Virus record (IMG/VR): IMGVR_UViG_3300045988_173323
DNA from: a virus
Length of the DNA stretch: 11,243 nucleotides
Strand: one strand, 5' to 3'
Both the position numbers and the translations under genes were made by a program. Every line of letters starts with the position of its first letter. Position 1 is the first letter of the stretch. This document shows positions 256 to 11,243 of the stretch, piece by piece. The notes under the pieces were generated by a model. The model made no database searches and had not been told where the DNA came from. It was given only the letters and a program-made list of their open reading frames with translations.

Positions 256-288
256 ATACATTACCTCTTTCTTTCTTTTGATATAATA

Positions 289-297
289 ATTATATCA
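289..297 (-). promoter_or_regulatory. Extended -10 promoter (TGaTATAAT on the minus strand) for gene 1..255, with no good -35.
   Basis: Minus strand reads ttaTGATATAATtattatatcaaaagaaagaaagaggtaATG. The same -10 to leader architecture recurs at the other minus-strand promoters. Confidence 0.5.
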
Positions 298-314
298 TAA
301 TTTTTAAAAAAAAT

Positions 315-352
315 AAAGTTATATAAATATAAACAACTATTTATATAACTTT
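315..352 (-). terminator. Rho-independent terminator for the 944..378 operon.
   Basis: Perfect 15-bp stem: aaagttatataaata (315-329) pairs with tatttatataacttt (338-352). On the minus strand it is followed by a T-run (plus 301-314 is A/T-rich, aaaaaaaa). Confidence 0.6.
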
Positions 353-377
353 ATGCTCTATTATTTTATTCTTTTAA

Positions 378-626
378 TTAAAAGAAATCATCTTCATCTT
401 CATCTATTGCTTTTCCATAGCTATCATCTACTTCTAAAGCGTGCTTCATTTCATAAGCCATGAAAAGACCTACTATGAAGCTAACTATTATTATAGATAT
501 AACTGATGCTACCCAAAGCGATAAACCAAAAGCACAACTTATAATAAGTCCAAGACAATAAATCCCTCCAAGGTACAACATAATTGTTCCCAATATGTAA
601 GCAATCTCCATTAAAAAGAAAAACAT
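378..626 (-). CDS. Small hydrophobic (about 2-TM) membrane protein with an acidic C-terminal tail ending ...DEDEDDFF.
   Basis: 82-aa ORF. RBS AAGGAGaaaattaaaATG. Two long hydrophobic stretches (ILGTIMLYLGGIYCLGLIISCAFGLSLWVASVISIIIVSFIVGLF). It sits immediately downstream of, and is co-oriented with, 648..944. Confidence 0.7.
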   Translation of the reverse strand: MFFFLMEIAYILGTIMLYLGGIYCLGLIISCAFGLSLWVASVISIIIVSFIVGLFMAYEMKHALEVDDSYGKAIDEDEDDFF

Positions 627-647
627 TTTAATTTTCTCCTTCTCATT

Positions 648-944
648 TTATTTTATTTCCTCCATCATCATATCTCCGTCATAAAGGATATATTCTGGCG
701 GAGTATGTGGAAAGAAAAATTCTTTAATTTGTTCAATCTCTTTTATTGTAATACCCGGCTTAAAATCTCCTGAAAGTGTAACTGCCGCCAGTGTTTCAGC
801 GTCAGTAATCTCAGTGTAATTATACCAGTTTTCTGCTTTTGCTTTAAAATTTGCTTTTAAATCTAAAGTTAGCGGGAAACCCTCTAATTTAAAAAAAGTT
901 TCAATTTTTTTCATTGTAGCTTCGATCAGTTTTGTGTTTGTCAT
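648..944 (-). CDS. Hypothetical small protein (about 98 aa), paralog of 1..255.
   Basis: Track ORF 648..950. I place the start at the second ATG (944, MTNTKL...) because GAGGT lies 7 nt upstream; the first ATG is only 2 nt from the SD. The product is paralogous to the 1..255 product. Confidence 0.75.
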   Translation of the reverse strand: MTNTKLIEATMKKIETFFKLEGFPLTLDLKANFKAKAENWYNYTEITDAETLAAVTLSGDFKPGITIKEIEQIKEFFFPHTPPEYILYDGDMMMEEIK

Positions 945-972
945 ATGCATTACCTCTTTCTTTTGATATGTT

Positions 973-981
973 TATTATATC
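973..981 (-). promoter_or_regulatory. Extended -10 promoter (TGaTATAAT) plus conserved leader for 648..944.
   Basis: Minus strand reads tTGATATAATaaacatatcaaaagaaagaggtaATGcatATG. Confidence 0.5.
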
Positions 982-1033
982 ATAAATTTTAAAAATAATA
1001 AAGTATATTTCTTTTATTAAGATAAAAAAAATT

Positions 1034-1072
1034 ATTATAATTAAGCAGTATTTTATACTGCTTAATTATAAT
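1034..1072 (-). terminator. Rho-independent terminator ending the SprT-like/AAA ATPase operon.
   Basis: About 16-bp perfect stem (attataattaagcagtat / atactgcttaattataat) with a 3-nt loop. The plus-strand A-run 1021-1030 gives a T-run after the stem on the minus strand. It lies 20 bp downstream of stop 1089. Confidence 0.7.
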
Positions 1073-1088
1073 ATAAAATAAAATTAAA

Positions 1089-2201
1089 TTAAAGTGCATA
1101 ATGAATTCTTTCACTAGGAATTTTTTTAATCAGCATATATTCTGGTTTTGCAGAAATATATTTATTGTAAAGCTCTAAGCTTTGTTTAACTTCTGAATCA
1201 TTTAAGCTTTCATTAATAACACACTGTAAAGATTTACCTGGAATAATACAGCCATGTTCTTTATTGTAAATAGCATCTTTTGGGTTGAAAGTACACATTA
1301 GTACGTCAAACTTAAAAACGCTATCTTCAAATTCATAGATTCTGCTCTTATTATCAAACATATCTACTAAACAATGGGGACATTCCGCAATAGCTCCATT
1401 CGAAAAATGAATAGTTAAATTATAATTATCACCAGTAAGATGCAAAATATTCAAATCTTTAATAGCCTCTTCAAAAGTTTCTTCGTTTTGTAATTCAAAA
1501 GCAATGGCTCTTAAACAATCATAATTCAAATATATTTTTTCTGAAAAACTAATTATTTTATCAATTTCTTTATATTGAGATTTTAAGAGATGATCTTCCA
1601 TATACTCACGAATTTCCTCTGGGGTCGGATATTCAAAGCGGAAGTGATAATGAAAACGCCCTGGTCTATTAACTAAATAATTATTTAATCCTGTTAAAAT
1701 ATTACAAGTAATAACAAAAAGTTTTTTACCCATGGCTATTCCATCAAACAAACTTAGCAATTCTGTTTGAGCTTTTTCATTTCCACTTCTGGAAAAAGTC
1801 TTATCAAATTCATCAAAAAGAATTATCACTTCTTGATTAATAGAGTTAAGATAACTTGCTATACCAGGTATATAGTTATTGACAATAATAATTGGATAAC
1901 CTTTTTTAATACCTTCAATAGCAAGAAGTTTTGAGAATAGAGATTTACCAATCCCTTTATCCCCGCTTAATATAACTCCTAAGTTGCGGTCAAATTTAGC
2001 GTAAGACCTTAGTACTTTCTGTACTTTTGATAAATGGACACCATAAATTTTTTCATTTACTTTAATTTCTGCATATTTTTCTAAAGAAAAACCAGAATTG
2101 GGATTAAAACAAACTTGATACGATTGCGGCGGAAGTTGCGTATAAATTTGCATACTGTCATCATAAATTTTAAAGTTATTTCCAGTATTTATTGCTCTCA
2201 T
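1089..2201 (-). CDS. AAA+ ATPase, classic clade, with a C-terminal Cys-containing domain.
   Basis: 370 aa. Walker A GDKGIGKS (aa 80-87). Walker B IILFDEFD (126-131). Sensor-1 VITCN (N167). RPGRF arginine-finger region (179-183). The C-terminal 100 aa carry CPHC...C...HGC...C. RBS aaaggaatactttATG. Confidence 0.85.
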   Translation of the reverse strand: MRAINTGNNFKIYDDSMQIYTQLPPQSYQVCFNPNSGFSLEKYAEIKVNEKIYGVHLSKVQKVLRSYAKFDRNLGVILSGDKGIGKSLFSKLLAIEGIKKGYPIIIVNNYIPGIASYLNSINQEVIILFDEFDKTFSRSGNEKAQTELLSLFDGIAMGKKLFVITCNILTGLNNYLVNRPGRFHYHFRFEYPTPEEIREYMEDHLLKSQYKEIDKIISFSEKIYLNYDCLRAIAFELQNEETFEEAIKDLNILHLTGDNYNLTIHFSNGAIAECPHCLVDMFDNKSRIYEFEDSVFKFDVLMCTFNPKDAIYNKEHGCIIPGKSLQCVINESLNDSEVKQSLELYNKYISAKPEYMLIKKIPSERIHYAL

Positions 2202-2250
2202 AAAGTATTCCTTTCTTTTATTTATATTATAGTATATTTTTTTAAAAAAA

Positions 2251-2757
2251 TCAATTCCAATTTTGCACGATTCTCAGAGGAGCGTTACAACAACCAGAAG
2301 CCAAAGCACTTTCTCCTCTTGTTAAAGAGGAAGAAACATCTCCACGAGCTACTAGTTTACCGCATTTTTTGCAATAGATTTCATACTTATACAGATCACG
2401 ATGAGGTTTCCATATCTGTCCTTCCGCGAATCGTTTAGGATTTTTAATTCCCATTCTTCGCATCTCTGCTTTCCAATACATATCATGACCATGAGGTTTT
2501 CCAGTATCCCATATTACAAAAGCATGAGCCAATTCATGCATTGTCGTAGTAATAATTGCTTCTTTTGTTCCAAATTTTAATAATTTTTCAGAAAATTCAA
2601 TAGATTCAATGTTCATAGTACGATCATTTGTATGTTCAAATACAACTCGACCTAACATAGTAACTAAATTAGGATTAATTACGATTGGACAGTAAATTGT
2701 TTTATTTCTTTCTTTTGCGATATAATTACATAAGCTAAGCATTTCTTTTTCAGTCAT
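2251..2757 (-). CDS. SprT/Wss1-like zinc metalloprotease with C-terminal zinc-ribbon-like Cys cluster.
   Basis: 168 aa. HExxH motif TTMHELAHAF. Downstream H (GKPHGH). C-terminus YCKKCGK...GCCNAP. RBS gaagaggtatataatatATG. It sits 50 bp upstream of, and co-oriented with, the ATPase gene, so an operon is likely. Confidence 0.75.
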   Translation of the reverse strand: MTEKEMLSLCNYIAKERNKTIYCPIVINPNLVTMLGRVVFEHTNDRTMNIESIEFSEKLLKFGTKEAIITTTMHELAHAFVIWDTGKPHGHDMYWKAEMRRMGIKNPKRFAEGQIWKPHRDLYKYEIYCKKCGKLVARGDVSSSLTRGESALASGCCNAPLRIVQNWN

Positions 2758-2821
2758 ATATTATATACCTCTTCATATTTTATTTTATTTCATTTCAATA
2801 GAGAATTACAGTATTAATTCT

Positions 2822-2841
2822 TAGTTAATTGTTATTAACTA
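2822..2841. promoter_or_regulatory. Operator-like palindrome (8-bp arms, 4-bp spacer) in the leader of the SprT-ATPase operon.
   Basis: tagttaat-tgtt-attaacta, with perfectly complementary arms. It lies between the minus-strand TSS at about 2861 and the start codon at 2757, and is adjacent to the divergent HTH gene. Confidence 0.45.
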
Positions 2842-2867
2842 TATAACTTTTTTCTTTTAATATATAT

Positions 2868-2896
2868 ATTATATTATAATTTTATAAAAAAATCAA
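2868..2896 (-). promoter_or_regulatory. Sigma-A-type promoter (TTGATT, 17 bp, TATAAT) for the 2757..1089 operon.
   Basis: Minus strand reads caTTGATTtttttataaaattataaTATAAT. The -35 is plus 2891-2896 and the -10 is plus 2868-2873. Confidence 0.5.
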
Positions 2897-2924
2897 TGAG
2901 AAATTATCGGCAAGTAGTTAAATA

Positions 2925-2953
2925 TTGAAAAAGTATAAAAAATATGTTATAAT
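2925..2953 (+). promoter_or_regulatory. Sigma-A-type promoter (TTGAAA, 17 bp, TATAAT) for the plus-strand operon 2988..4311.
   Basis: TTGAAA at 2925-2930 and TATAAT at 2948-2953 with an exact 17-bp spacer. It is back-to-back with the divergent minus promoter. Confidence 0.6.
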
Positions 2954-2987
2954 ATTTAATATAAACAAGAGAAAAGAGGACACGGGA

Positions 2988-3164
2988 TTGACAAGAGAAG
3001 AATTAAGTGCGGAATTGGGTATAAGTGAGAATAGAATATTACGTCACTGGCGGGAAGTGTGTAATAGCTATGAGCGGATTGGGATTAAGTTGATTAAAAG
3101 AGGGAAGGGAAAAAACGCGGAGTATGGTATTTTAAAAAAAGACGAGACTGTAGCAAGATTTTAG
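2988..3164 (+). CDS. Small helix-turn-helix DNA-binding protein (about 59 aa) with a probable TTG start. Candidate regulator of the divergent operon.
   Basis: The track ORF begins at TTG 2925, which is itself the -35 of the promoter. In frame, TTG 2988 is preceded by AAAGAGGA at 7-nt spacing. The product MTREELSAELGISENRILRHWRE... has an HTH-like segment. Confidence 0.55.
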   Translation: MTREELSAELGISENRILRHWREVCNSYERIGIKLIKRGKGKNAEYGILKKDETVARF

Positions 3165-3174
3165 AGGAGAATAT

Positions 3175-3444
3175 ATGATAACGGTTGAGAATATTACAAA
3201 TGGAACTGTAAATACATATAGCAATTTTGGTTGCAATCACATAAATATAGAACAAAATAAAAAAGAAGGTTGGGGAATATGTAAATATCTCGTTTCTGGA
3301 GAATTGTGTTTGTGCGGCAAGGAGAAGATTTTAATGAAAGATATTGGTAATAATTGTACTAGATGTCTTTCATATGAACCAGAACCAGAAGAAGAAGAAG
3401 AGGAAGATTTTGACGCGGATGAAGCTGACTATGAAGATCTTTAA
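3175..3444 (+). CDS. Cys-rich small protein with a highly acidic C-terminal tail.
   Basis: 89 aa. RBS GGAGaatatATG. Six Cys (C20, C36, C45, C47, C61, C64 in GCNH...C...CLC...CTRC). Tail EPEPEEEEEEDFDADEADYEDL. Confidence 0.7.
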   Translation: MITVENITNGTVNTYSNFGCNHINIEQNKKEGWGICKYLVSGELCLCGKEKILMKDIGNNCTRCLSYEPEPEEEEEEDFDADEADYEDL

Positions 3445-3595
3445 AGTGAGAATTGCCGCGTTATAAAAAAAATAGAGGATTTTTTTTGGAGAGAATTTTA
3501 AGATAAGAGGATAATATGACGAGAAAAGTTTAGCTGTTTTGTTAAAAGACGAATTAAAAAGCTCTAATCGTTAAGAAAAAATTTAACAAAAGGTG

Positions 3596-3649
3596 TTGAA
3601 AAAGTGTACAAACCAATGATTTGTTGAAATTTTTAAGCAAATGTTGAAA
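3596..3649 (+). promoter_or_regulatory. Three direct TGTTGAAA repeats upstream of gene 3694..4311. Candidate operator or promoter-element array.
   Basis: TTGAAA at 3596-3601, 3624-3629 and 3644-3649, in contexts gtgTTGAAAaag, ttgTTGAAAttt and atgTTGAAAata. No well-spaced -10 partner is found, so a regulatory-site role is preferred over a plain promoter. Confidence 0.35.
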
Positions 3650-3693
3650 ATATTTTAAGTATAAATTTTATGTTTAAATATAAGGAGGGAAAT

Positions 3694-4311
3694 ATGGAAA
3701 TTCAAAAAAATTCAAGGCAAATACCTAGTAATAAAATTTATACTGCTAACAAGAAGTATTCAGATATTCTATATGGATATTTACAACATAATTCTCTTTT
3801 AGACAAAGAGTGCGGAATTAGGTATATACTTAAAAAAGATATTAGCTTCGTAAAAATTGCTAATGAATTAAAGATGCATAGACAAACAGTTTCAAATAAA
3901 TTTAAAGTTTTGATAGAACAAAATTTGATTAGATACAATGAAGAATTAAAAAGATATGAATTAGTTACTATTGATAAAACATTAGCAACTTTATTGCCAG
4001 ATGAAACAGTTAGGATTTGTTATAACACTTTGCAAGATAGATGTTTAAGTATATTGGCTTATTTATTAAAAACTTATATTCAACATAATGAATCTTCTTG
4101 TCAAATAAATTTAGATGTTATAAAAGAATATGTTGGAATTTGTGTTTCAAATAGAGGGTGTAATAATCAGGTTATAAAGGATAGTCTTTTAATATTGCAA
4201 AAGTTAGGTTTTATTCAGTACCATACAGAAAGAAAATTAGATGAGGAAACAGGTGGTATAAGAACTATTTATATTTTAGATAAAGTGTATAATTTTGTTA
4301 CTTTTGATTAA
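3694..4311 (+). CDS. HTH-containing DNA-binding protein (205 aa). Function is undetermined: regulator, or possibly a replication/initiator-type protein.
   Basis: Start moved to ATG 3694 (TAAGGAGGgaaatATG). Track start 3670 has no SD. HTH-like segment: IANELKMHRQTVSNKFKVLIEQNLI. Confidence 0.8.
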   Translation: MEIQKNSRQIPSNKIYTANKKYSDILYGYLQHNSLLDKECGIRYILKKDISFVKIANELKMHRQTVSNKFKVLIEQNLIRYNEELKRYELVTIDKTLATLLPDETVRICYNTLQDRCLSILAYLLKTYIQHNESSCQINLDVIKEYVGICVSNRGCNNQVIKDSLLILQKLGFIQYHTERKLDEETGGIRTIYILDKVYNFVTFD

Positions 4312-4341
4312 AAGATATAGTAAATAAAATACTAAGTAAAA

Positions 4342-4498
4342 TTGCAAAATGTCGAAAAAGTGTAACACAATATAATAGTAGAAGTAATTTCATTACTTCG
4401 TATTCAAGCACTTCGTGCTTTCATACTCGTAATGAAATTACTTCTTAGCCGCCGATAATTTTGCAAAATGTCGAAAAAGTGTAACACAATATAATAGT
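4342..4498. repeat. 38-bp exact direct repeat (4342-4379 and 4461-4498) flanking a 66-bp inverted-repeat element (4380-4445).
   Basis: DR is ttgcaaaatgtcgaaaaagtgtaacacaatataatagt. Each copy carries TGTCGAA at 4350-4356 / 4469-4475 and a TATAAT. The element between them has 17-bp perfect outer arms (agaagtaatttcattac / gtaatgaaattacttct) and an inner gcac-ttc-gtgc hairpin. Confidence 0.8.
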
Positions 4499-4570
4499 GG
4501 TATTAAAATTATACCAGAAATATTATATTATATATTATACATAACTATTATATAATAATAATAATAATAT

Positions 4571-4607
4571 AGGTAATGTATCATACCGAAGGTATGATAC
4601 ATTACCT
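4571..4607. repeat. Perfect palindrome or hairpin (17-bp stem, 3-nt loop) preceded by an (ATA)n run.
   Basis: aggtaatgtatcatacc-gaa-ggtatgatacattacct. No flanking T-run on either strand, so not a canonical terminator. Confidence 0.75.
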
Positions 4608-4619
4608 TAGTGTAAATTA

Positions 4620-5400
4620 AAATGAAGAGTTTTATGCGGGGTGGGGTATTTAGTAGTTGAATCCGCTTTGTTTTAGAGGGACTCTTGTTTAATTTTAAAA
4701 TGTCAAGGAACGTTTTAAAAAATGATTTGAAAATTTTAAGGTTTAAGTAAATTAGGAAAGTTTTTCGGAAGGCATGAGAAAAAGTAAGAAAAGAAGTATG
4801 GTATATTTAGAGAATGGCAAAGAATATTACTGAATAATAACAAAGAGTTAGAGAGTTTTGTTAAAAACGAGTTATGGTTTTTTGGTTAGAAAAGTGTGGA
4901 AGAGGGTATTTAAATTATAAGAGAAGTATGGGAGTGCGGAATTGAATTTAATTAAAGTGCTTCCGCATTTAAAAAGCAAGGTTAAATAAAAATTGCGGGT
5001 TACAGAATTGCTTAAATAAAATTATTAAAATTTTGCGTGAGGAGTTTGATTTTGGAGAGAATTAAGGGTAGCTTTAATAAAATATAAAGATTGGATTAAA
5101 GGTGCGTAAGGTTAAGATAATAAAATATTTTAGAATTAGAGGGAATTGAGGATAGGTTAGCAAAAATAATAAGACTGAGCAAAGAGAATTTAATGTTTGG
5201 GTTAAGAGAAAGTATAAGTTAGATTAAGAGAGAAGAAGGTTGAAGTATATAAAATAATAAGCGGAAGTGAGGATTTTGAGATTGGGTTAAGAGAGGAGTG
5301 AGATTAGAGTGAGAGAGCGTAGAATTGGAGTGTAGAGAGGATGAGAGTGAGGCGTGAGTGGAGAAAGGATAGAGCGAGGCTGAAAAAATGCGAGAAAAAG
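4620..5400 (+). other. About 780-bp strand-asymmetric non-coding tract. The + strand is purine-rich and nearly C-free (roughly 35 C, about 4-5%).
   Basis: I counted C per 60-nt line; nearly every line has 1-4, and 4921-4980 has 6. No ORF of credible composition exists on either strand. GAG/GTGAG-rich degenerate repeats occur, e.g. gggttaagaga twice and GAGGAnTTTGAnnTTGG twice. It lies between convergent genes. Confidence 0.7.
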
Positions 5401-5403
5401 GTG

Positions 5404-5441
5404 AAAAAAATTGTGAGAGTGAAGTGCTCAGCCTCACTCTC
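5404..5441 (-). terminator. Rho-independent terminator for gene 5463..5858.
   Basis: Stem gagagtga (5415-5422) pairs with tcactctc (5434-5441). On the minus strand it is followed by T7 (plus aaaaaaa 5404-5410). It lies 22 bp past stop 5463. Confidence 0.65.
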
Positions 5442-5462
5442 CCTATCCTACCTCAGAGCTCT

Positions 5463-5858
5463 TTATACGAGCCCAGAGAGGATTTTTCTAATAATTTCAT
5501 CATCTGACAGAGCTTTTTCATTCTCCCGTTTTACATCTCTTTTCAGTTTATCTGTATCTACTCTTTTAACTCTAATTCTTGTCCTTGGAAGACCATCCAT
5601 TTTACCAAAAGCTTCAATAGTCTTTTCCATCTTAGTAAACTCTGTCATAAGATTTTTTCTATCCTCAGCAGACTCTTTTTTATCAATAGCTCCAAGAGCA
5701 ATTCCATACGCTACAAACGCGTCAACCAATTTGTTTCTCGCATCTACAATCGCCTTTGTGCGGGTTTCCTTAGTCTGCTCCGCCTCGATTTCAGCTCTTA
5801 CCGCCTTAAGAATTTCATCTGTTGTTTTGCCTTCTGCGATCATTCTTTTAATATCCAT
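5463..5858 (-). CDS. Hypothetical charged, probably alpha-helical protein (131 aa).
   Basis: RBS AAAAGGAGaacatactATG. Normal amino-acid composition, Lys/Glu-rich (MDIKRMIAEGKTTDEILKAVRAEIEAEQ...). It has its own promoter and terminator. Confidence 0.8.
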   Translation of the reverse strand: MDIKRMIAEGKTTDEILKAVRAEIEAEQTKETRTKAIVDARNKLVDAFVAYGIALGAIDKKESAEDRKNLMTEFTKMEKTIEAFGKMDGLPRTRIRVKRVDTDKLKRDVKRENEKALSDDEIIRKILSGLV

Positions 5859-5905
5859 AGTATGTTCTCCTTTTGAAATGTTTATTTGTTTTTCTTTATG
5901 TATAT

Positions 5906-5934
5906 ATTATATCAAAAAATTATAGAAAATTCAA
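5906..5934 (-). promoter_or_regulatory. Sigma-A promoter (TTGAAT, 17 bp, TGaTATAAT) for 5463..5858.
   Basis: Minus strand reads ccTTTGAATtttctataattttttgaTATAAT. The -35 is plus 5929-5934 and the -10 is plus 5906-5911. Confidence 0.6.
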
Positions 5935-6175
5935 AGGGGAAGACATCTTTCTAGCTATTGTTGGGCTTAATTAGTTTCCAAAAATTTTAAATGAGATAAG
6001 GCTCGACGTAAAAATGGAAGGCGGAAAATAAAAATGGCTTTTTTTACTATTGTATCATATATTTTGTTAAAAATCAAGCGGAGAGAGGTGAGGTATGTTG
6101 AAATTGCGGGATTCTAGAGTAGTGATTCAAAATTCCAAACATCTAGCGAAAAAGCCCATATGGACGATCTTTGGG

Positions 6176-6241
6176 GTAGGTCGGATCCGAGTCCTTTGAA
6201 CTCGGACCGCTGATTATATCACAGCCGCCGCGTTTTGTCAA
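6176..6241 (-). promoter_or_regulatory. Consensus promoter (TTGACA, 17 bp, TGaTATAAT) whose transcript starts directly with an AGCGG-plus-hairpin element.
   Basis: -35 is plus 6236-6241 and -10 is plus 6213-6218, with an exact 17-bp spacer. Downstream on the minus strand: cagcggtccgagttcaaaggactcggatccgacc (stem ccgagt/actcgg). It reads toward 5463..5858, about 350 nt away. Confidence 0.55.
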
Positions 6242-6293
6242 TAGGCAAATTATATAAATTTTTCATTATTTTTTTAGTAATATTGCACAAAAA

Positions 6294-6347
6294 GTCATTT
6301 TTACCAAAAATTTCATTAAAAATAGGATTTTTTTTGGTAAAAATGAC
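6294..6347. repeat. 17-bp inverted repeat with a 20-bp spacer.
   Basis: gtcatttttaccaaaaa (6294-6310) pairs with tttttggtaaaaatgac (6331-6347). Confidence 0.7.
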
Positions 6348-6365
6348 TAAAATAAATAAAAATGT

Positions 6366-6402
6366 ACAAAAAAATAGCCAAAAACCGCGTAATTTTTGGC
6401 TA
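6366..6402 (-). terminator. Rho-independent terminator downstream of 6524..6919.
   Basis: Stem tagccaaaaa (6375-6384) pairs with tttttggcta (6393-6402), loop ccgcgtaa. The plus-strand A-run 6367-6374 gives a T-run after the stem on the minus strand. Confidence 0.6.
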
Positions 6403-6460
6403 TTTTATATAGAATATAGAATTTTATTGAATTTTTATAAGAAATTTTAGTTATTTTGTA

Positions 6461-6497
6461 TAGAATAGTCAGAAATGTAAATTTTCTGACTATTCTA
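6461..6497 (-). terminator. 15-bp perfect hairpin immediately downstream of 6524..6919. Probable first terminator or RNA 3'-end structure.
   Basis: tagaatagtcagaaa (6461-6475) pairs with tttctgactattcta (6483-6497). The minus-strand downstream sequence is only moderately T-rich. Confidence 0.45.
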
Positions 6498-6523
6498 CGT
6501 AATTTTTAGTTACCTTGAACTGC

Positions 6524-6919
6524 TTACTCCTCTACAGCTTCCTCTTCCTCTTTTGCAAGAGAGAAATAAGGAACTCTTTTTTCAACTGTTCTAACTACCT
6601 CTCCAGATTCGATAAGCTGTTTAAGAAGAGCCGATAATTTCTGAGAAGAAAGTTTACTCATTTCAGAGTTTTCCTTAATCATGGTTGAAACTGTAACAGG
6701 TTTATCAAATAACTCCAAAGCTACAAGAATAAGTTTTTTGACTTCCTCATTTTCTTTCTGGTTTTTGGTTTTTTTACCGCTGGAAGATTTTTTATTCAAC
6801 AGCTCGATTTCATGTCTGAGAAAGTTAAGTGCTTCTTCTTTTGGTTCAAAGCTACTTTCTTCCAGAAAAGCACTGATAGTTTCAAACCAATCTTTTTTTG
6901 TCATTTTGTCTTTCATCAT
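6524..6919 (-). CDS. Small acidic-tailed protein with a conserved C-terminal winged-helix-like domain (family A, copy 1), about 131 aa.
   Basis: Start set at ATG 6919 (GAGGTaatgaatATG, 7-nt spacing). It is paralogous to 9103..9510, with a near-identical C-terminal half PVTVSTMIKENSEMSKLSSQKLSALLKQLIESGEVVRTVEKRVPYFSLAKEEEE. Confidence 0.8.
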   Translation of the reverse strand: MMKDKMTKKDWFETISAFLEESSFEPKEEALNFLRHEIELLNKKSSSGKKTKNQKENEEVKKLILVALELFDKPVTVSTMIKENSEMSKLSSQKLSALLKQLIESGEVVRTVEKRVPYFSLAKEEEEAVEE

Positions 6920-6952
6920 ATTCATTACCTCTTTCTTTCTTTTGATATATTT

Positions 6953-6981
6953 ATTATAGCATACTTTTTTGTTTTTGTCAA
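6953..6981 (-). promoter_or_regulatory. Consensus promoter (TTGACA, 17 bp, TATAAT) plus conserved leader. Part of a roughly 62-bp near-identical repeat copied at 7208-7270.
   Basis: -10 is plus 6953-6958 and -35 is plus 6976-6981. The leader aaatatatcaaaagaaagaaagaggta runs into the ATG. Confidence 0.65.
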
Positions 6982-7012
6982 TTACTTTTTTTATTTTTTT
7001 CTTTTCTGGTGC

Positions 7013-7201
7013 TTATCTAATGTAAGCACCAGCAATAGACTTAACAGAGCCATCAGCATTGAAAAAGATAACATTATTCTGGATAACGTTGATACCTTTA
7101 TTCTTTGCAAAATTTCTGAACACAAAGTCTGTATTCCAGAGTTTGATAAAATCAGCTTTTCTCATGCTTGCAAAACCTTTTGTGTAATTCATTGTTCTCA
7201 T
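7013..7201 (-). CDS. Hypothetical small protein (about 62 aa).
   Basis: Start ATG 7201 (GAGGTattgtctATG). The track's TTG start at 7207 is 6 nt upstream. It has its own consensus promoter. Confidence 0.65.
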   Translation of the reverse strand: MRTMNYTKGFASMRKADFIKLWNTDFVFRNFAKNKGINVIQNNVIFFNADGSVKSIAGAYIR

Positions 7202-7234
7202 AGACAATACCTCTTTCTTTCTTTTGATATATTT

Positions 7235-7263
7235 ATTATAGCATACTTTTTTGTTTTTGTCAA
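7235..7263 (-). promoter_or_regulatory. Consensus promoter (TTGACA, 17 bp, TATAAT). Second copy of the promoter-leader cassette.
   Basis: Sequence 7208-7270 is nearly identical to 6926-6988. -10 is plus 7235-7240 and -35 is plus 7258-7263. Confidence 0.65.
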
Positions 7264-7278
7264 TTACTTTTTTATTTT

Positions 7279-7482
7279 TTAATTTTTTCCAAGATACTCT
7301 TCAAGATGCTCGTTTAAGAAATTTATAGTTTCATCCAACCCGCAAATCTCACAAAAGTTTTTAAAAGCTTTTTCAAGTTCTTTTTTTCTAGTTGCTTTTA
7401 TTAATTTAATACAACTCTCATAATCTTCTTTTGTAATAACAAAAGGAACGCATCCATCTTTTTTCAATGTAAATTTTTCCAT
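7279..7482 (-). CDS. Hypothetical small protein (67 aa) with several Cys (C11, C24, C44, C47).
   Basis: RBS AGAGAGGcaaataaaaATG. It has its own promoter. Confidence 0.7.
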   Translation of the reverse strand: MEKFTLKKDGCVPFVITKEDYESCIKLIKATRKKELEKAFKNFCEICGLDETINFLNEHLEEYLGKN

Positions 7483-7514
7483 TTTTATTTGCCTCTCTTT
7501 CTTTTGATATATTT

Positions 7515-7543
7515 ATTGTATCACATCTTTTGACTGCTGTCAA
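7515..7543 (-). promoter_or_regulatory. Consensus promoter (TTGACA, 17 bp, TGaTACAAT).
   Basis: -10 is plus 7515-7520 (revcomp TACAAT) and -35 is plus 7538-7543. It shares the leader aaatatatcaaaagaaagagagg. Confidence 0.6.
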
Positions 7544-7549
7544 GCACTT

Positions 7550-7969
7550 TTATAAAATATTTTCAGCTTTTAAGTAATCTCTATAGGAAATATAGCCATT
7601 TTCCGCGAGCCACCTATCACAAGCGTTGGATTCTCTCCAATAATACTCCTCCCAGACTGGAAAAGTTATTATTATTTTATCACTTTCTTTTTTAAGAATA
7701 GTAATAATTGTATTAATACAATGTCCTTTACCCTCAAGCCATTCCTTGAAAGTAACCTTTTCTGCCGCTTCAAACGAAATTGTAAATGAGAAATTAAGCT
7801 CTTTTCCTTTTTCTGTGAGAAAATCAGTTAAATAATTTACAAACTCTTCTTCCTCATAGTTACTTTCGTCCAGCAGTGGAGTTTCTAAAAAATGCTCATT
7901 TGCTGGATTATAAAATCCATTTCTTTTGATGTCTTCAATTAACATTTTAACAACTTTTTCAATTTTCAT
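7550..7969 (-). CDS. Hypothetical protein (139 aa).
   Basis: RBS GAAGGAAtgggataaaATG. Ordinary composition. It has its own promoter. Confidence 0.75.
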   Translation of the reverse strand: MKIEKVVKMLIEDIKRNGFYNPANEHFLETPLLDESNYEEEEFVNYLTDFLTEKGKELNFSFTISFEAAEKVTFKEWLEGKGHCINTIITILKKESDKIIITFPVWEEYYWRESNACDRWLAENGYISYRDYLKAENIL

Positions 7970-8004
7970 TTTATCCCATTCCTTCTTTTGATTTTTGTAA
8001 TATC

Positions 8005-8033
8005 ATTATATCAAATTTAATTTGGTTTGTCAA
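8005..8033 (-). promoter_or_regulatory. Consensus promoter (TTGACA, 17 bp, TGaTATAAT).
   Basis: -10 is plus 8005-8010 and -35 is plus 8028-8033. Confidence 0.6.
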
Positions 8034-8140
8034 GTGTTTTTTATTTTTTTATAAGGTTTTCGCATAACACTTGACCAAAAGCATTTCCTTATTATTTTCT
8101 ATTGACATAATCTCAAATTGATTTGATTTTGTCAAGTCTT

Positions 8141-8464
8141 TTAAAAATAACTTCCTAAGCTTGTAATAAAAGTGCTTTCTACAATAAGTTTATTATTTAT
8201 ATAATAAGTAAAAGCAATAGAAGTTACATAAACAGCCAGACCTAAGAGTGAACTTTCAAAAGCACATTCCTGAGAGATATTAAATTTATAGTTTTTATGT
8301 TTAGGATTTTCTTTTAAGAAATTGAAAACAGTCTCGCCTAAACAATCGCCTTTATTATTCATTTCCATGTAATTATGTCTTTCAGAGTTCCAAAAACCGT
8401 GACTGTCTAAAAAATCATAAAGGTCTGCCATTGTCTCCTCAAACATTGTTAAATCGTTTGCCAT
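8141..8464 (-). CDS. Hypothetical small protein (107 aa), family B copy 1 (GFW-S motif).
   Basis: RBS GAAAGAGGTatttaatATG. N-terminal DLYDFLDSHGFWNSE aligns with NRLEDDLIKAGFWDSD of 9629..9922. Confidence 0.75.
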   Translation of the reverse strand: MANDLTMFEETMADLYDFLDSHGFWNSERHNYMEMNNKGDCLGETVFNFLKENPKHKNYKFNISQECAFESSLLGLAVYVTSIAFTYYINNKLIVESTFITSLGSYF

Positions 8465-8499
8465 ATTAAATACCTCTTTCTTATTTATTTTATGTATAC

Positions 8500-8528
8500 A
8501 TTATATCAAAAGAAAAAATAAAAGTCAA
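8500..8528 (-). promoter_or_regulatory. Consensus promoter (TTGACT, 17 bp, TGaTATAAT).
   Basis: -10 is plus 8500-8505 and -35 is plus 8523-8528. Confidence 0.6.
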
Positions 8529-8559
8529 TGGCATTTTGCACAAAGTATAATAAAATATT

Positions 8560-8760
8560 TTGTCTATTTTGACTATTGACAAGTTTAGCATTGTGCATAA
8601 CAGAGAAAATTGGCGAATTTTGATATAAATTTTTGTTCATTTTACCTATTGACAAAGAATTTTGTGCAAAACAGAGAATTTTGGGATAAAAAATTTTTTA
8701 TTTTTGTGCATTTTTTCTCTTGACAAAATTGTTAGCGTGTGATATAATGGATATTTCGGT
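8560..8760. repeat. Three tandem degenerate units of about 60-70 bp. Each has a TTGACA followed by a TTGTGCA(a/t)AACAGAGAA-type box. Only the last unit retains a consensus -10.
   Basis: ctaTTGACAagtttagcattgtgcataacagagaaaattgg; cctaTTGACAaagaattttgtgcaaaacagagaattttgg; ctcTTGACAaaattgttagcgtgtgaTATAATgg. Confidence 0.6.
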
Positions 8761-8813
8761 CGCCTTGATCCAAGGCGACCCGCTATTATATCACACTTTC
8801 GGGTGCTTGTCAA
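8720..8813. promoter_or_regulatory. Face-to-face (convergent) consensus promoters on opposite strands, flanking a nested palindrome.
   Basis: Plus: TTGACA 8720-8725, 17 bp, TATAAT 8743-8748. Minus: -35 at plus 8808-8813, -10 at plus 8785-8790, 17-bp spacer. Between them: gtgtgatataat..ggtcgcc-ttgatccaa-ggcgacc..attatatcacac. Confidence 0.6.
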
Positions 8814-9024
8814 TAGGCAAAATAAACAAAATTAAAAAATTTTTGAGCATTATCTTTGTTACATTTTCACAAAATTATAGACTGGAACTCTTTGTGCAAC
8901 AATACCAAAATTATAAAAATTTTTTAGCTATTTTTTGTAATTTATGTACATTGACTTTTTTGTTCTCTGGTATTTTTGAATAAAAAACATCCCTCCAGCA
9001 GCGGATTTTTTGTGCAAAAAGTAG

Positions 9025-9072
9025 AAAAAAAAATGCACAAAAAGGAGGACGGATTTTGTGCAATCCGCCCTC
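9025..9072 (-). terminator. Rho-independent terminator for 9103..9510.
   Basis: Stem gaggacggat (9045-9054) pairs with atccgccctc (9063-9072). It is perfect with one G-U wobble in minus-strand RNA. The minus-strand downstream is cuuuuugugcauuuuuuuuu. Confidence 0.6.
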
Positions 9073-9102
9073 TTGACAAGGTTTATAAGTTACTTTTTAG
9101 TT

Positions 9103-9510
9103 TTACTCTTCTTCCTCAACTTCTTCTTCTTTTGCAAGAGAAAAGTAAGGAACTCTTTTTTCAACTGTCCTGACCACTTTGCCTGCCTCAATCATTTTTT
9201 TCAACAGTGCAGATAACTTCTGAGAAGAAAGCTTACTCATTTCGGCGTTCTCTTTAATCATTGTAGTTACCGTGACAGGTTTACCAAACAGCTCTAAGGC
9301 AATTCCAATAAGTTCCATAAGCTCCTCATTTTCTTTAATGTGAGCTGTTTTCTTTTTGCCTGGTGCTGAAGATTTCTTATTTAACAGTTCAATCTCGTGA
9401 TTGATGAAGTCAAGTGTTTCTATTTTTTTGTCAAAGTTTTCGGTTTTTTCTACGATGCCAACCAGCAGTTTGAAAAAGTCTTTTTTTGTCATTTTTGTTG
9501 TGTTTGTCAT
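9103..9510 (-). CDS. Family A copy 2: small acidic-tailed protein with a winged-helix-like C-terminal domain (135 aa).
   Basis: RBS AAGAGGAatttaattATG. The C-terminal half is nearly identical to the 6524..6919 product. Tail EEEVEEEE. Confidence 0.8.
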   Translation of the reverse strand: MTNTTKMTKKDFFKLLVGIVEKTENFDKKIETLDFINHEIELLNKKSSAPGKKKTAHIKENEELMELIGIALELFGKPVTVTTMIKENAEMSKLSSQKLSALLKKMIEAGKVVRTVEKRVPYFSLAKEEEVEEEE

Positions 9511-9555
9511 AATTAAATTCCTCTTTTCTTTCTTTAAAAATTTTTTTGGTGGCTT

Positions 9556-9651
9556 GCGGTCGGTGGTCGATTTTGCCGACCAACCAAACCGCTGAAATTA
9601 TTTACTACTTTGTTACAATACTATTGTACTACTTCTTTTTACTTTTGTCAA
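9556..9651 (-). promoter_or_regulatory. Consensus promoter (TTGACA, 17 bp, TACAAT) with a structured 5' leader (CAGCGG plus hairpin) for 9103..9510.
   Basis: -35 is plus 9646-9651 and -10 is plus 9623-9628. Leader on the minus strand: attgtaacaa...cagcggtttggttggtcggcaaaatcgaccaccgaccgc. The promoter overlaps the 3' end of 9629..9922. Confidence 0.55.
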
Positions 9652-9922
9652 GCACTTTTTTTATTTTTTTTTGTTCCCACAAAACTACTTGAGTCATAGG
9701 CTTGTTATTTTCAATCCAAGCAAGGGAAAAAGCTACGATGTTAAAAGGATGCTCAAGAAATTCGATATAATCAATATCAAATTCAAAATCCCATTCTTTT
9801 TGATAAGATTCTAACAAGCTATTGATAGCGTTATAGCTATAAGTATAACTATAACTATCACTGTCCCAAAAACCTGCTTTTATTAAGTCATCTTCTAAAC
9901 GATTTAAAATTTTTTCTAACAT
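9629..9922 (-). CDS. Family B copy 2 (GFWDS motif), about 97 aa.
   Basis: Start at ATG 9922 (GAAGGTGAtaataATG). The track start 9937 lacks an SD. No separate promoter is seen, so it is probably co-transcribed with 10000..10374. Confidence 0.7.
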   Translation of the reverse strand: MLEKILNRLEDDLIKAGFWDSDSYSYTYSYNAINSLLESYQKEWDFEFDIDYIEFLEHPFNIVAFSLAWIENNKPMTQVVLWEQKKIKKVLDKSKKK

Positions 9923-9950
9923 TATTATCACCTTCATTCAATGTTATTTC

Positions 9951-9979
9951 CTTGCTACCGCTTAATAAGCGGTAGCAAG
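9951..9979. other. Perfect 13-bp-stem hairpin in the 10000/9922 intercistronic gap.
   Basis: cttgctaccgctt-aat-aagcggtagcaag. A T-run follows on the plus strand only, so a minus-strand terminator role is doubtful. Confidence 0.6.
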
Positions 9980-9999
9980 TTTATTAAATTATTTAGTTT

Positions 10000-10374
10000 C
10001 TATTTCTTTTTTGGCGGTCGATGCTTAATCAAAGAAATTGAATACTCGGACTCACCGATTTTGAAAGTAATTTCTTTTTGTGGATTTGCGATTGCTACAC
10101 TTTCAAAGTCCATTTCTTCATTTTCTTTTAAGTAGCTTGCTAAAATCTCAATAATTTTAACTTTTTCTGCATCAAGTTTGATTTCACGCTTTTTCGTGCT
10201 TTTTTTCTCTGGTGTACTCTGGACATAATTCTTAATGCCTTTAGCCTTAATCTCCATTTCTGCCATTTCAAGAGCTTCCTCTTTTGTTACGGGTTCTCCA
10301 TCCGCTTCAAATTCTTTCATAAGCTTAATAGCAAGCTTTTCGATTGCATCTGCGGTCACTGTTGTTTTAGCCAT
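10000..10374 (-). CDS. Hypothetical Lys/Glu-rich protein (124 aa).
   Basis: RBS aaaaAGGAtgtgatgtaacATG. It has its own consensus promoter. Confidence 0.75.
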   Translation of the reverse strand: MAKTTVTADAIEKLAIKLMKEFEADGEPVTKEEALEMAEMEIKAKGIKNYVQSTPEKKSTKKREIKLDAEKVKIIEILASYLKENEEMDFESVAIANPQKEITFKIGESEYSISLIKHRPPKKK

Positions 10375-10422
10375 GTTACATCACATCCTTTTTAAAATTT
10401 ACTATTAACTTGTTACAATGGT

Positions 10423-10451
10423 ATTATATCGCACCTTAGCTTAAAAGTCAA
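10423..10451 (-). promoter_or_regulatory. Consensus promoter (TTGACT, 17 bp, TATAAT). Part of a 52-bp exact repeat that also occurs at 11191-11243.
   Basis: -10 is plus 10423-10428 and -35 is plus 10446-10451. The -35 overlaps the TGA stop of the upstream gene. Leader contains ATTGTAACAA. Confidence 0.65.
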
Positions 10452-11158
10452 GCATTTTCGTGTAATTCTTTTCTTTTTTTCTGCGGCAGTCTCCAACATG
10501 ACGGCTTAATACTTCTATCCATTTTTTTATGCTGGTCAAAACATTTTTTCATAATTTCAATTTCAATTTTTACATCTTCTAAACCTGTATGAGATTCTAC
10601 AAAATCAATATTCTTTTTAATATATTTATAGCATACCTCAGCGTTAGTTAAAAGATTGCCTTTTTCAGACTCAAATCCGTTTTTCTCAGCAAATTTGATA
10701 TAGGTGTTTGTACTTAAAATCATCTGGCAAGCCATATTCCAAATACAAAAATATTCTGTGCCATAAGGGAAAAACCAGCGAATAAAACTTTTGCTATGGT
10801 ATCTAATAGCATTGTTTAATGCTTTTCTATCAAAATTCATATTGTAAGCACCAACTTTTTTCACATTATATTCTTTCATGTCTGCAAACATCTGTTTTCT
10901 AATATTGAAGATGCTTTTCATGGTTCTTTTTCCGCTTTTTAAATCATCCCAATATTTTGGGATTTTTTTAGCGTAGTAGGCACTATTCATAGCTTCTTTC
11001 AAGTCAATAAATGTCTCAGCGACTACAAAGCTTCTTTCGGTGACAATGTTACCGTGTCTATCTGCAATAGCATAACCAATATCATAAGGGATTGGCTCAT
11101 TTACACTATTCGCAGTTTCTGTATCCAATACCATGAAAAACTCTTTTCTTCTACTCAT
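10448..11158 (-). CDS. DEDDh-family 3'-5' exonuclease (DnaQ/RNase T-like), about 236 aa.
   Basis: Exo I MVLDTETA. Exo II YNMNFDRKAL. Exo III ESHTGLEDV. Start at ATG 11158 (GAGGAaatcaaaaATG); the track TTG start at 11173 is unlikely. Confidence 0.8.
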   Translation of the reverse strand: MSRRKEFFMVLDTETANSVNEPIPYDIGYAIADRHGNIVTERSFVVAETFIDLKEAMNSAYYAKKIPKYWDDLKSGKRTMKSIFNIRKQMFADMKEYNVKKVGAYNMNFDRKALNNAIRYHSKSFIRWFFPYGTEYFCIWNMACQMILSTNTYIKFAEKNGFESEKGNLLTNAEVCYKYIKKNIDFVESHTGLEDVKIEIEIMKKCFDQHKKMDRSIKPSCWRLPQKKRKELHENA

Positions 11159-11213
11159 TTTTGATTTCCTCAACTTTCATTTATTTTTTTTACTATTAAC
11201 TTGTTACAATGGT

Positions 11214-11242
11214 ATTATATCGCACCTTAGCTTAAAAGTCAA
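11214..11242 (-). promoter_or_regulatory. Consensus promoter (TTGACT, 17 bp, TATAAT) for the exonuclease gene. Second copy of the 52-bp repeat.
   Basis: Identical to 10400-10452. -10 is plus 11214-11219 and -35 is plus 11237-11242. Confidence 0.65.
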
Positions 11243-11243
11243 G

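Follow-up and report, generated by a model that had tools for sequence, protein, structure and literature searches.

A dense array of consensus promoters, recombining promoter-leader cassettes, and a geneless promoter-hairpin class in the probable early region of an uncultured human-gut phage

The 11,243-nucleotide (nt) stretch of viral DNA analyzed here (IMG/VR record IMGVR_UViG_3300045988_173323; below, the window is this whole stretch) is probably part of the early, hyperplastic (variable-content) region of an uncultured human-gut phage of about 135 kb, in which small genes have their own promoters, promoter-leader cassettes recombine, and a second class of promoters is associated with hairpins. 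The window corresponds to positions 959 to 12201, on the reverse strand, of a 135,403-bp metagenome phage contig (L001). Eleven further contigs of 74 to 139 kb are 94 to 99% identical to the window, giving 12 in all at 94 to 100%. We compared these 12 near-identical contigs (L001 to L012) with one another and with phage phAss-1 (L013) and the more distant contigs L048 and L105.

We scanned the window for TTGACA-N16-18-TATAAT with a cutoff of at least 11 of 12 matches, taking the chance level from 500 dinucleotide-preserving shuffles. Twelve sites passed, 10 on the minus strand and 2 on the plus strand, and all had a 17-bp spacer, though 16 to 18 bp was allowed. The shuffles yielded a mean of 0.79 such sites (maximum of 4), or 0.27 when 17-bp spacers alone were counted, so the observed number is about 15-fold above expectation, with one spacer length throughout. 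A second, separate promoter scan of the window agreed with this result. A first-pass annotation, made from the letters of the window without database searches, had listed 13 near-consensus promoters with exact 17-bp spacers and, in most cases, TGn-extended -10 elements. All 13 were found where it had placed them: 12 are the sites described above, every one with the claimed spacer, and the thirteenth (5934-5906) matches at 10/12 and carries the TG. The TG at -15/-14 is present in 10 of the 13 sites and is missing at 11242, 10451, and 9651. Several gene-serving promoters (6981, 7263, 8033, and 9651) also have an A-tract upstream of the -35 element. The promoter array is far above chance, and it is local. 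It measures about 12 kb overall and extends about 7 kb past the right end of the window: the region L009:2500-14500 contains 25 sites with at least 11/12 matches, against a single site in the 8.9 kb beyond the left end. The array continues rightward and ends leftward.

A start codon follows 10 of the 13 listed promoters on the same strand, at a distance of 27 to 112 nt. The first-pass view that each promoter serves one small gene therefore held for these 10, but not for 6241(-), 8813(-), and 8720(+), which have no open reading frame (ORF) downstream. Of the 10, 2925(+) heads three genes, and a 102-amino-acid (aa) gene lacks its own promoter.

Some of the cassettes are exact duplicates. Positions 6926-6991 and 7208-7273 are identical over 66 nt, and positions 10398-10452 and 11189-11243 are identical over 55 nt, the latter pair being cut off by the window end; both duplications are slightly longer than first reported. 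Two paralogous pairs indicate that genes within the array are duplicated as well. The 133-aa gene at 6524-6925 shares about 76% DNA identity with the 135-aa gene at 9103-9510, and the leftmost gene (9-185) shares about 76% with part of the 100-aa gene (689-865).

The duplicated cassettes had been taken to suggest that genes are gained, lost, or swapped as modules of promoter, ribosome-binding site, and ORF. Comparison of the 12 genomes supported this: they differ in gene content, gene order is not invariant, and breakpoints fall in cassettes. Three independent deletions have their crossover within the shared promoter-leader, with flanking alignments that overlap by 58 to 88 nt. L007 lacks the 67-aa gene, and promoter 7543 (TTGACAGCAGTCAAAAGATGTGATAC.AT) leads into the 62-aa ORF through the leader of that gene (61-nt overlap). 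L012 lacks both the 67-aa and the 62-aa genes, and the same promoter leads into the 131-aa ORF, again through the leader of the gene concerned (58-nt overlap). L007 and L011 lack a 76-aa gene of L009; here, the crossover relative to L009 lies inside GAGGTTGATAAAAATGA and connects cassette L009:5713 with the ORF that follows cassette L009:6194 (88-nt overlap). Other exchanges end at intergenic hairpins or promoter edges. In L003, a paralogue of the 67-aa gene replaces the 102-aa gene, bounded by the hairpin at 9951-9979 and the A-tract of promoter 9651. L002, L004, and L006 have lost 2.4 kb from the hairpin at 9951-9979 (left boundary) to the 67-aa ORF, exactly the deletion that recombination between two 67-aa paralogues, arranged as in L003, would yield. 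Further replacements in L012 end 14 to 55 nt from promoters. The breakpoints show gene loss by recombination between the repeated cassettes.

From these patterns, we propose the following workings. Nearly every small gene has its own promoter that fits the consensus of the host primary sigma factor (sigma-A/sigma-70 type), with a 17-bp spacer and usually a TG-extended -10 element, and between promoter and gene there is a short polypurine leader with a strong Shine-Dalgarno sequence. Host RNA polymerase would read these promoters on the entering DNA without a phage factor, and hence all the small proteins would be made simultaneously and at a high level. With few terminators in the way, downstream genes would also be fed by read-through transcripts. 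As the genome comparison shows, the near-identical cassettes act as portable homology: recombination between two cassettes deletes the ORFs between them, the reverse reaction could insert or duplicate ORFs, and each crossover leaves a functional promoter-leader-ORF junction. Promoters 6241(-), 8813(-), and 8720(+) form a separate conserved class, marked by a T-rich upstream element with GTGCA and a GC-rich hairpin in place of a gene.

In all three of these geneless promoters, the GC-rich hairpin lies within a few bases of the -10 element, and all three match the consensus at 12/12 and carry the TG. The promoter at 8785-8813 (minus strand) has the upstream sequence TTTTGCCTA, and its hairpin starts 4 nt past the -10 element. 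It faces the promoter at 8720-8748 (plus strand; upstream sequence, TTGTGCATTTTTTCTC), behind which we found no credible ORF, and a 10-bp GC-rich hairpin (GGTCGCCTTG-GAT-CAAGGCGACC; 8758-8780) lies between the two. The predicted start sites of this pair are face to face and about 22 bp apart; judging from footprint sizes, two polymerases could hardly occupy both at once. The plus-strand promoter is directed antisense at the 135-aa gene, toward its 3' end and the terminator at 9045-9072. The third promoter (6213-6241; minus strand) has the upstream sequence TTTGCCTA and a hairpin at 6185-6207. The 5' segments of the facing-pair transcripts fold far better than shuffled sequences (z = -4.2 and -4.3), with the 10-bp stem dominating, and the segment from promoter 6241 has a weak margin (z = -1.9). 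The box TTGTGCA occurs nine times in the window against 1.3 expected; eight copies lie in the noncoding hub at 8537-9062 and the other is at 6284-6290. In hairpin-class promoters, this box is fixed, starting 16 nt upstream of the -35 element; it might bind a factor or act as a variant UP element.

The unit is widespread among viral contigs. The pattern GCCTATTGACAA-N13-TGNTAWAAT gave at least 120 matches in IMG/VR, mostly in contigs of 80 to 216 kb; the promoter-hairpin unit is present in more than 100 IMG/VR contigs and is kept from 30% to 51% GC. Among GenBank phages, only phAss-1 and one fecal contig share it. A facing partner is present in 24 of the 121 unique IMG/VR matches, among the matches listed. 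The phage of the window has two more facing pairs beyond the right window end (L009 7751/7845 and 7904/8007), and others occur in phAss-1 (L013 2969-3060 and 5173-5263); in these pairs beyond the window, the distance from -10 to -10 is 32 to 39 nt. Solo units elsewhere often fire into the bidirectional terminator that ends a convergent gene.

We then compared 942 unique near-consensus promoters from related loci, of which 202 belong to the hairpin class; the other 740 are defined solely by the absence of the GC hairpin. The hairpin class has a GC-rich hairpin (modal length, 27 nt) at the 5' end and the upstream sequence ATTTTTGTGCAWTTTGCCTA, with TTGT at -16 in 59% of its members. The remaining promoters typically have a leader running to an ORF and upstream A-tracts, with TTGT at -16 in 7%. 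The hairpin units also have a conserved loop motif and a conserved GGAAATTTC flank. For covariation, we chose 45 units without a folding criterion, aligned them with MAFFT, and counted pairs for one named structure, a 9-bp stem. Seventy-two percent of the stem cells were paired, versus 57.5% in shuffles (0 of 500 reached the observed value) and 37 to 50% when the stem register was slid; 75 stem cells had changed on both sides versus 35 expected. The hairpin stem covaries. RNAalifold returned no structure on the same MAFFT alignment of 45 units, the rows of which are out of register. Hairpins of exactly 27 nt selected by RNAfold showed near-perfect covariation, which we did not use as evidence, as the selection itself guarantees pairing.

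Searches for a known counterpart of the unit were negative. Rfam gave no credible family in the window, just chance-level microRNA matches, and only tRNAs in four related unit-rich loci, and querying the full text of the literature with the promoter strings brought up no relevant paper. An RNA anti-CRISPR (a solitary repeat unit) is disfavored, as one phage carries four different hairpin sequences with loops of 9 to 11 nt.

The geneless units could be composite terminator/promoter insulators like the PeSLs (promoter-early stem-loop cassettes) of T4-type phages, in which the hairpin would attenuate incoming transcription and the promoter would restart it. PeSLs are repeated cassettes of about 60 to 100 bp comprising an AT-rich tract, a sigma-70 promoter, a Shine-Dalgarno sequence, and a start codon; they precede genes without relatives in hyperplastic regions, and indels among close relatives have been attributed to recombination between them (Arbiol et al. 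2010; Comeau et al. 2014; PMC2839356, PMC4122927). One PeSL subclass has its stem-loop directly 3' of the -10 element (PMC2839356), and the units described here lie in noncoding hubs between transcription units, adjoining the terminators at 9045-9072 and around 6375-6415. Stem-loops occur in the window in the cassettes of 6241, 8813/8720, and 9651. They also occur in four upstream cassettes of the same phage (L009 4987, 5373, 6194, and 6833), gene-serving promoters that embed the -35 element in a 9- to 12-bp stem-loop (e.g., TAGGTCTTGAC-AAAA-GTCAAGACCTA), the layout of one T4 PeSL subclass. However, no U-run follows the hairpins in either direction, and the facing promoter fires antisense. The distinct upstream element, GGAAATTTC flank, loop motif, and modal length of 27 nt rather suggest a specific recognition element. 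We regard the insulator as possible, with the odds against it.

Equally tentative is the reading that the units represent an undescribed class of cis-acting regulatory elements shared by a large group of uncultured phages of the gut and rumen. The unit consists of the ATTTTTGTGCAWTTTGCCTA element, a consensus promoter, and the GC hairpin (modal length of 27 nt, conserved loop, and GGAAATTTC flank), arranged solo or as a facing pair. Candidate roles would be modification of RNA polymerase by a nut- or put-like RNA, replication from a transcription-primed origin with a GC-rich R-loop in an AT-rich genome, and early small RNAs antisense into convergent operon ends. We rank the PeSL-like insulator first, followed by early RNAs, small or antisense, that the 5' hairpin would protect, the polymerase-modifying RNA, and the transcription-primed origin.

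Three observations on individual units may be added. The minus-strand promoter 6241 may produce an RNA of about 65 nt (6140-6212) without an ORF, in which a linker connects the 5' hairpin to GTCCATATGGGC and a T-run near 6140-6160; four viral contigs (L022, L055, L097, and L119) have the same promoter type and a similar RNA layout ending in CCATATGG and a T-run. In one related viral contig (L130), tRNA genes lie near hairpin-class promoters (1388-1459 and 3681-3766). In the phAss-1 record (OQ749652.1), a coding sequence for a hypothetical protein is annotated at 130774-130824 beneath a hairpin-class promoter of a facing pair; this is probably an annotation artifact in a noncoding hub.

The gene-serving cassettes share a leader, ATCAAAAGAAAGAAAGAGGTA, which is found in three exact copies (ending at 262, 6926, and 7208) and three looser variants, among about 17 genes. 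Most leaders have a GAGG-type Shine-Dalgarno sequence. The first-pass annotation was right that genes share a leader but probably misplaced the start codon by having the leader run straight into the ATG. The ATG abutting GGTA is only about 3 nt past GAGG, too near for a likely start, and the in-frame ATG 6 nt downstream, the start in the gene calls on the source contigs, is the likelier one. The annotation had also suggested that the leader could be a common posttranscriptional control site, which here would mean that a factor of the phage or host binds the leader specifically and coregulates the genes. Besides the six copies of ATCAAAAGAAAGAAAGAGGTA, a second leader family in the right-hand array (L009:2500-14500; AATATTATCAAATGAAAGAGAGGTTGATAAAAATG) and the leaders of phAss-1 have a similar design (ATCA-polypurine-GAGG), as would be expected of such a site. 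However, the exact copies lie inside the 55- to 66-nt exact duplications, and their identity thus reflects recent copying. The features common to the leaders (short, unstructured, purine rich, with a strong Shine-Dalgarno sequence) are a generic recipe for efficient initiation and 5' stabilization, and we saw no conserved structure or additional motif in them. A polypurine 5' stabilizer was reportedly described in Bacillus by Hue et al. in 1995. Short polypurine leaders also fit ribosome-dependent 5' stabilization in Bacillus (STAB-SD), as covered by references given in PMC3997798. Recent duplication and a generic polypurine leader with a strong Shine-Dalgarno sequence suffice to explain the pattern, and we consider a dedicated control site unlikely.

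The array could instead be transcribed as a few long polycistronic early mRNAs, with the internal promoters contributing little and persisting mainly because they provide homology for recombination or are left over from module acquisition. The gene strand indeed has few terminator-like sites (9072-9045, 5441-5415, 1073-1033, and a weak AT-rich site near 6415-6375), and the stretch from 8528 to 6524 contains five genes, five promoters, and no such site, so nested read-through transcripts are expected there. Tandem strong promoters are also able to occlude one another. Yet the -35 element, 17-bp spacing, TG, and -10 element are kept at consensus in divergent cassettes with differing spacer sequences, and the same elements are kept in phages from 30% to 51% GC. 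This conservation argues for selection on promoter function, beyond homology alone, and makes predominantly polycistronic expression unlikely. That AT-rich composition alone gave rise to the promoter-like sites (the window has 29.6% GC, and a loose scan found 79 weak sites versus 57 expected), or that the window is a plasmid or other nonphage element, is refuted for practical purposes by the excess of high-scoring sites with one spacer length, the lack of a match among PLSDB plasmids, and the phage genes on source contigs of 133 to 139 kb.

The preferred reading of an early phage region with individually promoted genes is in line with the gene content, as far as relatives can be assigned. The 370-aa ATPase matches phrog_2376 (E = 6e-102) and shares about 44% identity with proteins of Enterococcus Herelleviridae, and the 236-aa exonuclease-like protein matches phrog_20187, with matches in Enterococcus phages and 30% identity in phAss-1. 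For the small proteins of 62 to 139 aa, sequence searches of Pfam, PHROGs (a library built from phage proteins), and PDB gave no usable relatives; a MotA-like match of a 131-aa protein (E = 0.008) is weak and not credible by itself. Megablast of the window against GenBank phages, as against PLSDB, gave no match, and a search of the window for tRNA and tmRNA genes found none. Two genes in the flanks of the array encode ADP-ribose-removing enzymes: a NADAR gene (E = 8e-30; L001 14805-15248) and a microbial-type PARG gene (E = 1e-25; L007 1335-2090), the latter present in some genomes only and absent from L008 and L010. They would fit a counterdefense flavor of the region. The earlier characterization of the window as typical of host-takeover or antidefense regions fits this context (a phage contig, PHROG-assigned ATPase and exonuclease-like genes, small ORFs without families, and NADAR and PARG in the flanks), with timing and function being predictions.

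The host probably belongs to the Bacillota and is likely a species of Clostridia. Bacterial assemblies also contain the string GCCTATTGACAA...TATAAT; they are overwhelmingly metagenome-assembled genomes (MAGs) of Clostridia (Ruminococcus, Oscillospiraceae, Eubacteriales, and Lachnospiraceae), where the GCCTATTGACAA string is usually found 5' of ordinary genes, tRNAs, and riboswitch-like leaders. This is consistent, if weakly, with use of the host primary sigma factor and with a Clostridia host. The string is not phage specific: 20 of 122 matches in bacterial MAGs passed the hairpin filter, and by eye about 12 had the full phage-type unit. The latter are probably misbinned phage contigs.

Among known systems, the array resembles the host-takeover module of phage SPO1 (genes 37 to 60). 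In the accounts of that module used here, it spans about 12 kb and contains many small early genes, mostly without assigned function, with promoters and ribosome-binding sites that are typical of highly expressed genes and are read by host sigma-A RNA polymerase (PMC6873191, PMC13401047). Kayvirus and other Herelleviridae have similar early regions in their long terminal repeats (PMC6445280). The present array is likewise a cluster of small genes of about 12 kb with strong ribosome-binding sites and strong sigma-A-consensus promoters (10 gene-serving promoters with 10 to 12 of 12 matches), as judged here by sequence, and the window ATPase is related to Herelleviridae proteins. In contrast to the SPO1 module, the window has nearly one promoter per gene, none of its small proteins falls into any PHROG or Pfam family (phage relatives are confined to the ATPase and the exonuclease-like protein), which gives no homology to SPO1 gp37 to gp60 or other early proteins of Herelleviridae, and it has the second, hairpin-driving promoter class, for which we saw no counterpart in those accounts of SPO1. 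The architecture of the phage matches the phAss-1 group, unlike that of any classified Herelleviridae.

The gene-serving cassettes are similar to PeSLs in that they combine a consensus promoter, an upstream A-tract, a Shine-Dalgarno sequence, and the start of a gene without relatives. Indel endpoints lie in the cassettes in both systems, and here the three crossovers are seen directly. PeSLs further have a stable stem-loop that serves as terminator or attenuator, and cassette-bounded mini-circles packaged into virions belong to that system. In contrast to PeSLs, the hairpins in the window go with promoters of a class apart, which have an upstream element of their own, are often arranged as facing pairs, and have no gene behind. 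Moreover, PeSLs are carried by T4-like myoviruses of Gram-negative hosts, so that phage lineage and host phylum differ. The phage is not T4-like: its nearest proteins are those of Enterococcus Herelleviridae and phAss-1, and its promoter type is also found in Clostridia MAGs. As the small proteins have no known homology, the phage is not T4-like, and most cassettes have no stem-loop, the array is not a member of the SPO1 module or the PeSLs by descent.

A third parallel is phAss-1 of the proposed Phassvirus group, uncultured human-gut phages of which some use genetic code 15. The phAss-1 genome (135,976 bp; 51% GC) is similar in size to that of the source phage, encodes the homologue of the exonuclease-like protein at about 30% identity, and has equally dense consensus promoters (23 in its right-hand 11 kb, or 20 per 10 kb). 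It also has facing pairs of the same geometry around GC hairpins, with nearly identical upstream strings (TTTTGCCTATTGACAAGC.CCC.GAA.GTG.TATAAT). The two differ in base composition (51% GC versus 30% in the window), and protein similarity is low. The published description of phAss-1 does not mention promoters. Among IMG/VR loci of at least 8 kb, 36 of 61 have at least 8 promoter sites per 10 kb.

Several points weigh against the account of an early, host-directed region built from recombining cassettes. For none of the small proteins is a host target demonstrated or predicted. The contigs (133 to 139 kb) begin at arbitrary points and so do not show where the array lies with respect to the ends of the genome. 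The assignment to sigma-A is drawn from the consensus match and from the same string in Clostridia MAGs, and promoter activity, early timing, and read-through are likewise deduced from sequence features. Only deletions are directly documented, with module insertion suggested by the replacements, and the stem-loop, the defining feature of PeSLs, is missing from most of the gene-serving cassettes of the window.

The cassette pattern is already known from SPO1 and T4 and is now found in a different, uncultured lineage of human-gut phages; the part that goes beyond existing knowledge is the geneless promoter-hairpin class, including the facing pairs. The window offers a clean case, at the sequence level, of promoter-leader cassettes as both expression signals and recombination substrates, with crossovers at single-base resolution. 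The consensus promoters may flag the early region and delimit about 25 to 30 small early genes as candidates for host takeover or counterdefense. Noncoding hubs are mishandled by automated annotation, as with the hypothetical protein of phAss-1, and the promoter-hairpin units provide a defined target for studies of transcription control in gut phages.

The gene-serving promoters of the minus strand are described here from right to left. At 11214-11242, TTGACT-17-TATAAT (11/12) lies within the 55-nt exact repeat, 55 nt 5' of the 236-aa exonuclease-like gene (10448-11158), and the same sequence at 10423-10451 (11/12) lies 48 nt 5' of a 124-aa gene (10000-10374). The latter is followed by a 13-bp palindromic hairpin (9951-9979) and by the 102-aa gene (9629-9937). 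The promoter at 9623-9651 (TTGACA-17-TACAAT) serves the 135-aa gene at 9103-9510 through a 112-nt leader that contains a GC-rich hairpin at about 9556-9592, and an intrinsic-terminator-like hairpin with a T-run (9045-9072; minus strand) closes this unit. The promoter at 8500-8528 (11/12, TG), with a TTGTGCA box upstream, lies 35 nt 5' of a 107-aa gene (8141-8464). That at 8005-8033 (12/12, TG) lies 35 nt 5' of a 139-aa gene (7550-7969) with the variant leader ATCAAAAGAAGGAATGGG, and that at 7515-7543 (11/12, TG) lies 32 nt 5' of the 67-aa gene (7279-7482). The two 66-nt cassettes follow, each with a 12/12 promoter with TG and the leader ATCAAAAGAAAGAAAGAGGTA: the cassette at 7208-7273 (promoter 7263-7235) serves the 62-aa gene (7013-7201), and that at 6926-6991 (promoter 6981-6953) serves the 131/133-aa gene (6524-6919/6925). 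Downstream of the 133-aa gene, an AT-rich hairpin between an A-run and a T-run (6375-6415; minus strand) is weakly terminator-like, as judged by reading and by a below-threshold Rfam match. The promoter at 5906-5934 (TTGAAT-17-TATAAT) lies 47 nt 5' of a 131-aa gene (5463-5858), which is followed by a terminator at 5415-5441 (minus strand).

Two minus-strand genes near the left end have the extended -10 promoter TGATATAAT. The first (297-289) has a -35 element with just 3/6 matches and the exact leader at 282-262, and its gene runs off the left window end. The second (982-974) is without a usable -35 element and has the leader variant ATCAAAAGAAAGAGGTA (to 949) before the 98/100-aa gene (648-944/950). 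The plus-strand promoter at 2925-2953 (TTGAAA-17-TATAAT; 11/12, TG) heads the three-gene unit of opposite orientation, with genes for a helix-turn-helix (HTH)-like protein of 58 aa (2988-3164), an 89-aa protein (3175-3444), and a 205-aa protein (3694-4311). The 205-aa protein is winged-HTH/ScpB-like, and its gene is subject to allelic replacement (3558-4370 versus L002 7457-8651): in L002, L004, L006, L007, L008, and L010, the replacing alleles encode a 204-aa GIY-YIG nuclease-domain protein (E = 2e-6) and a 119-aa HTH-like protein. The allelic 205-aa and 204-aa proteins have no detectable overall homology.

Noncoding features follow this unit. Direct repeats of 51 bp (4337-4387 and 4456-4506; 90% identical), each with TGTCGAA, flank a roughly 65-nt palindrome (4381-4445), with a 17-bp hairpin coming next at 4571-4607. 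A reading of the repeats as Spo0A boxes was rejected, given that TGNCGAA occurs 3 times in the window versus 3.1 expected. Downstream of the plus-strand unit (2925-4311) lies a 791-nt noncoding stretch (4620-5410) with 35 C versus 215 G on the plus strand, a GC skew of up to +0.82, and frequent stop codons in six frames; a G-rich transcript from it could, speculatively, favor R-loop formation. The stretch is 95 to 99% conserved in the sister genomes and about 89 to 90% conserved in L048 and L105.

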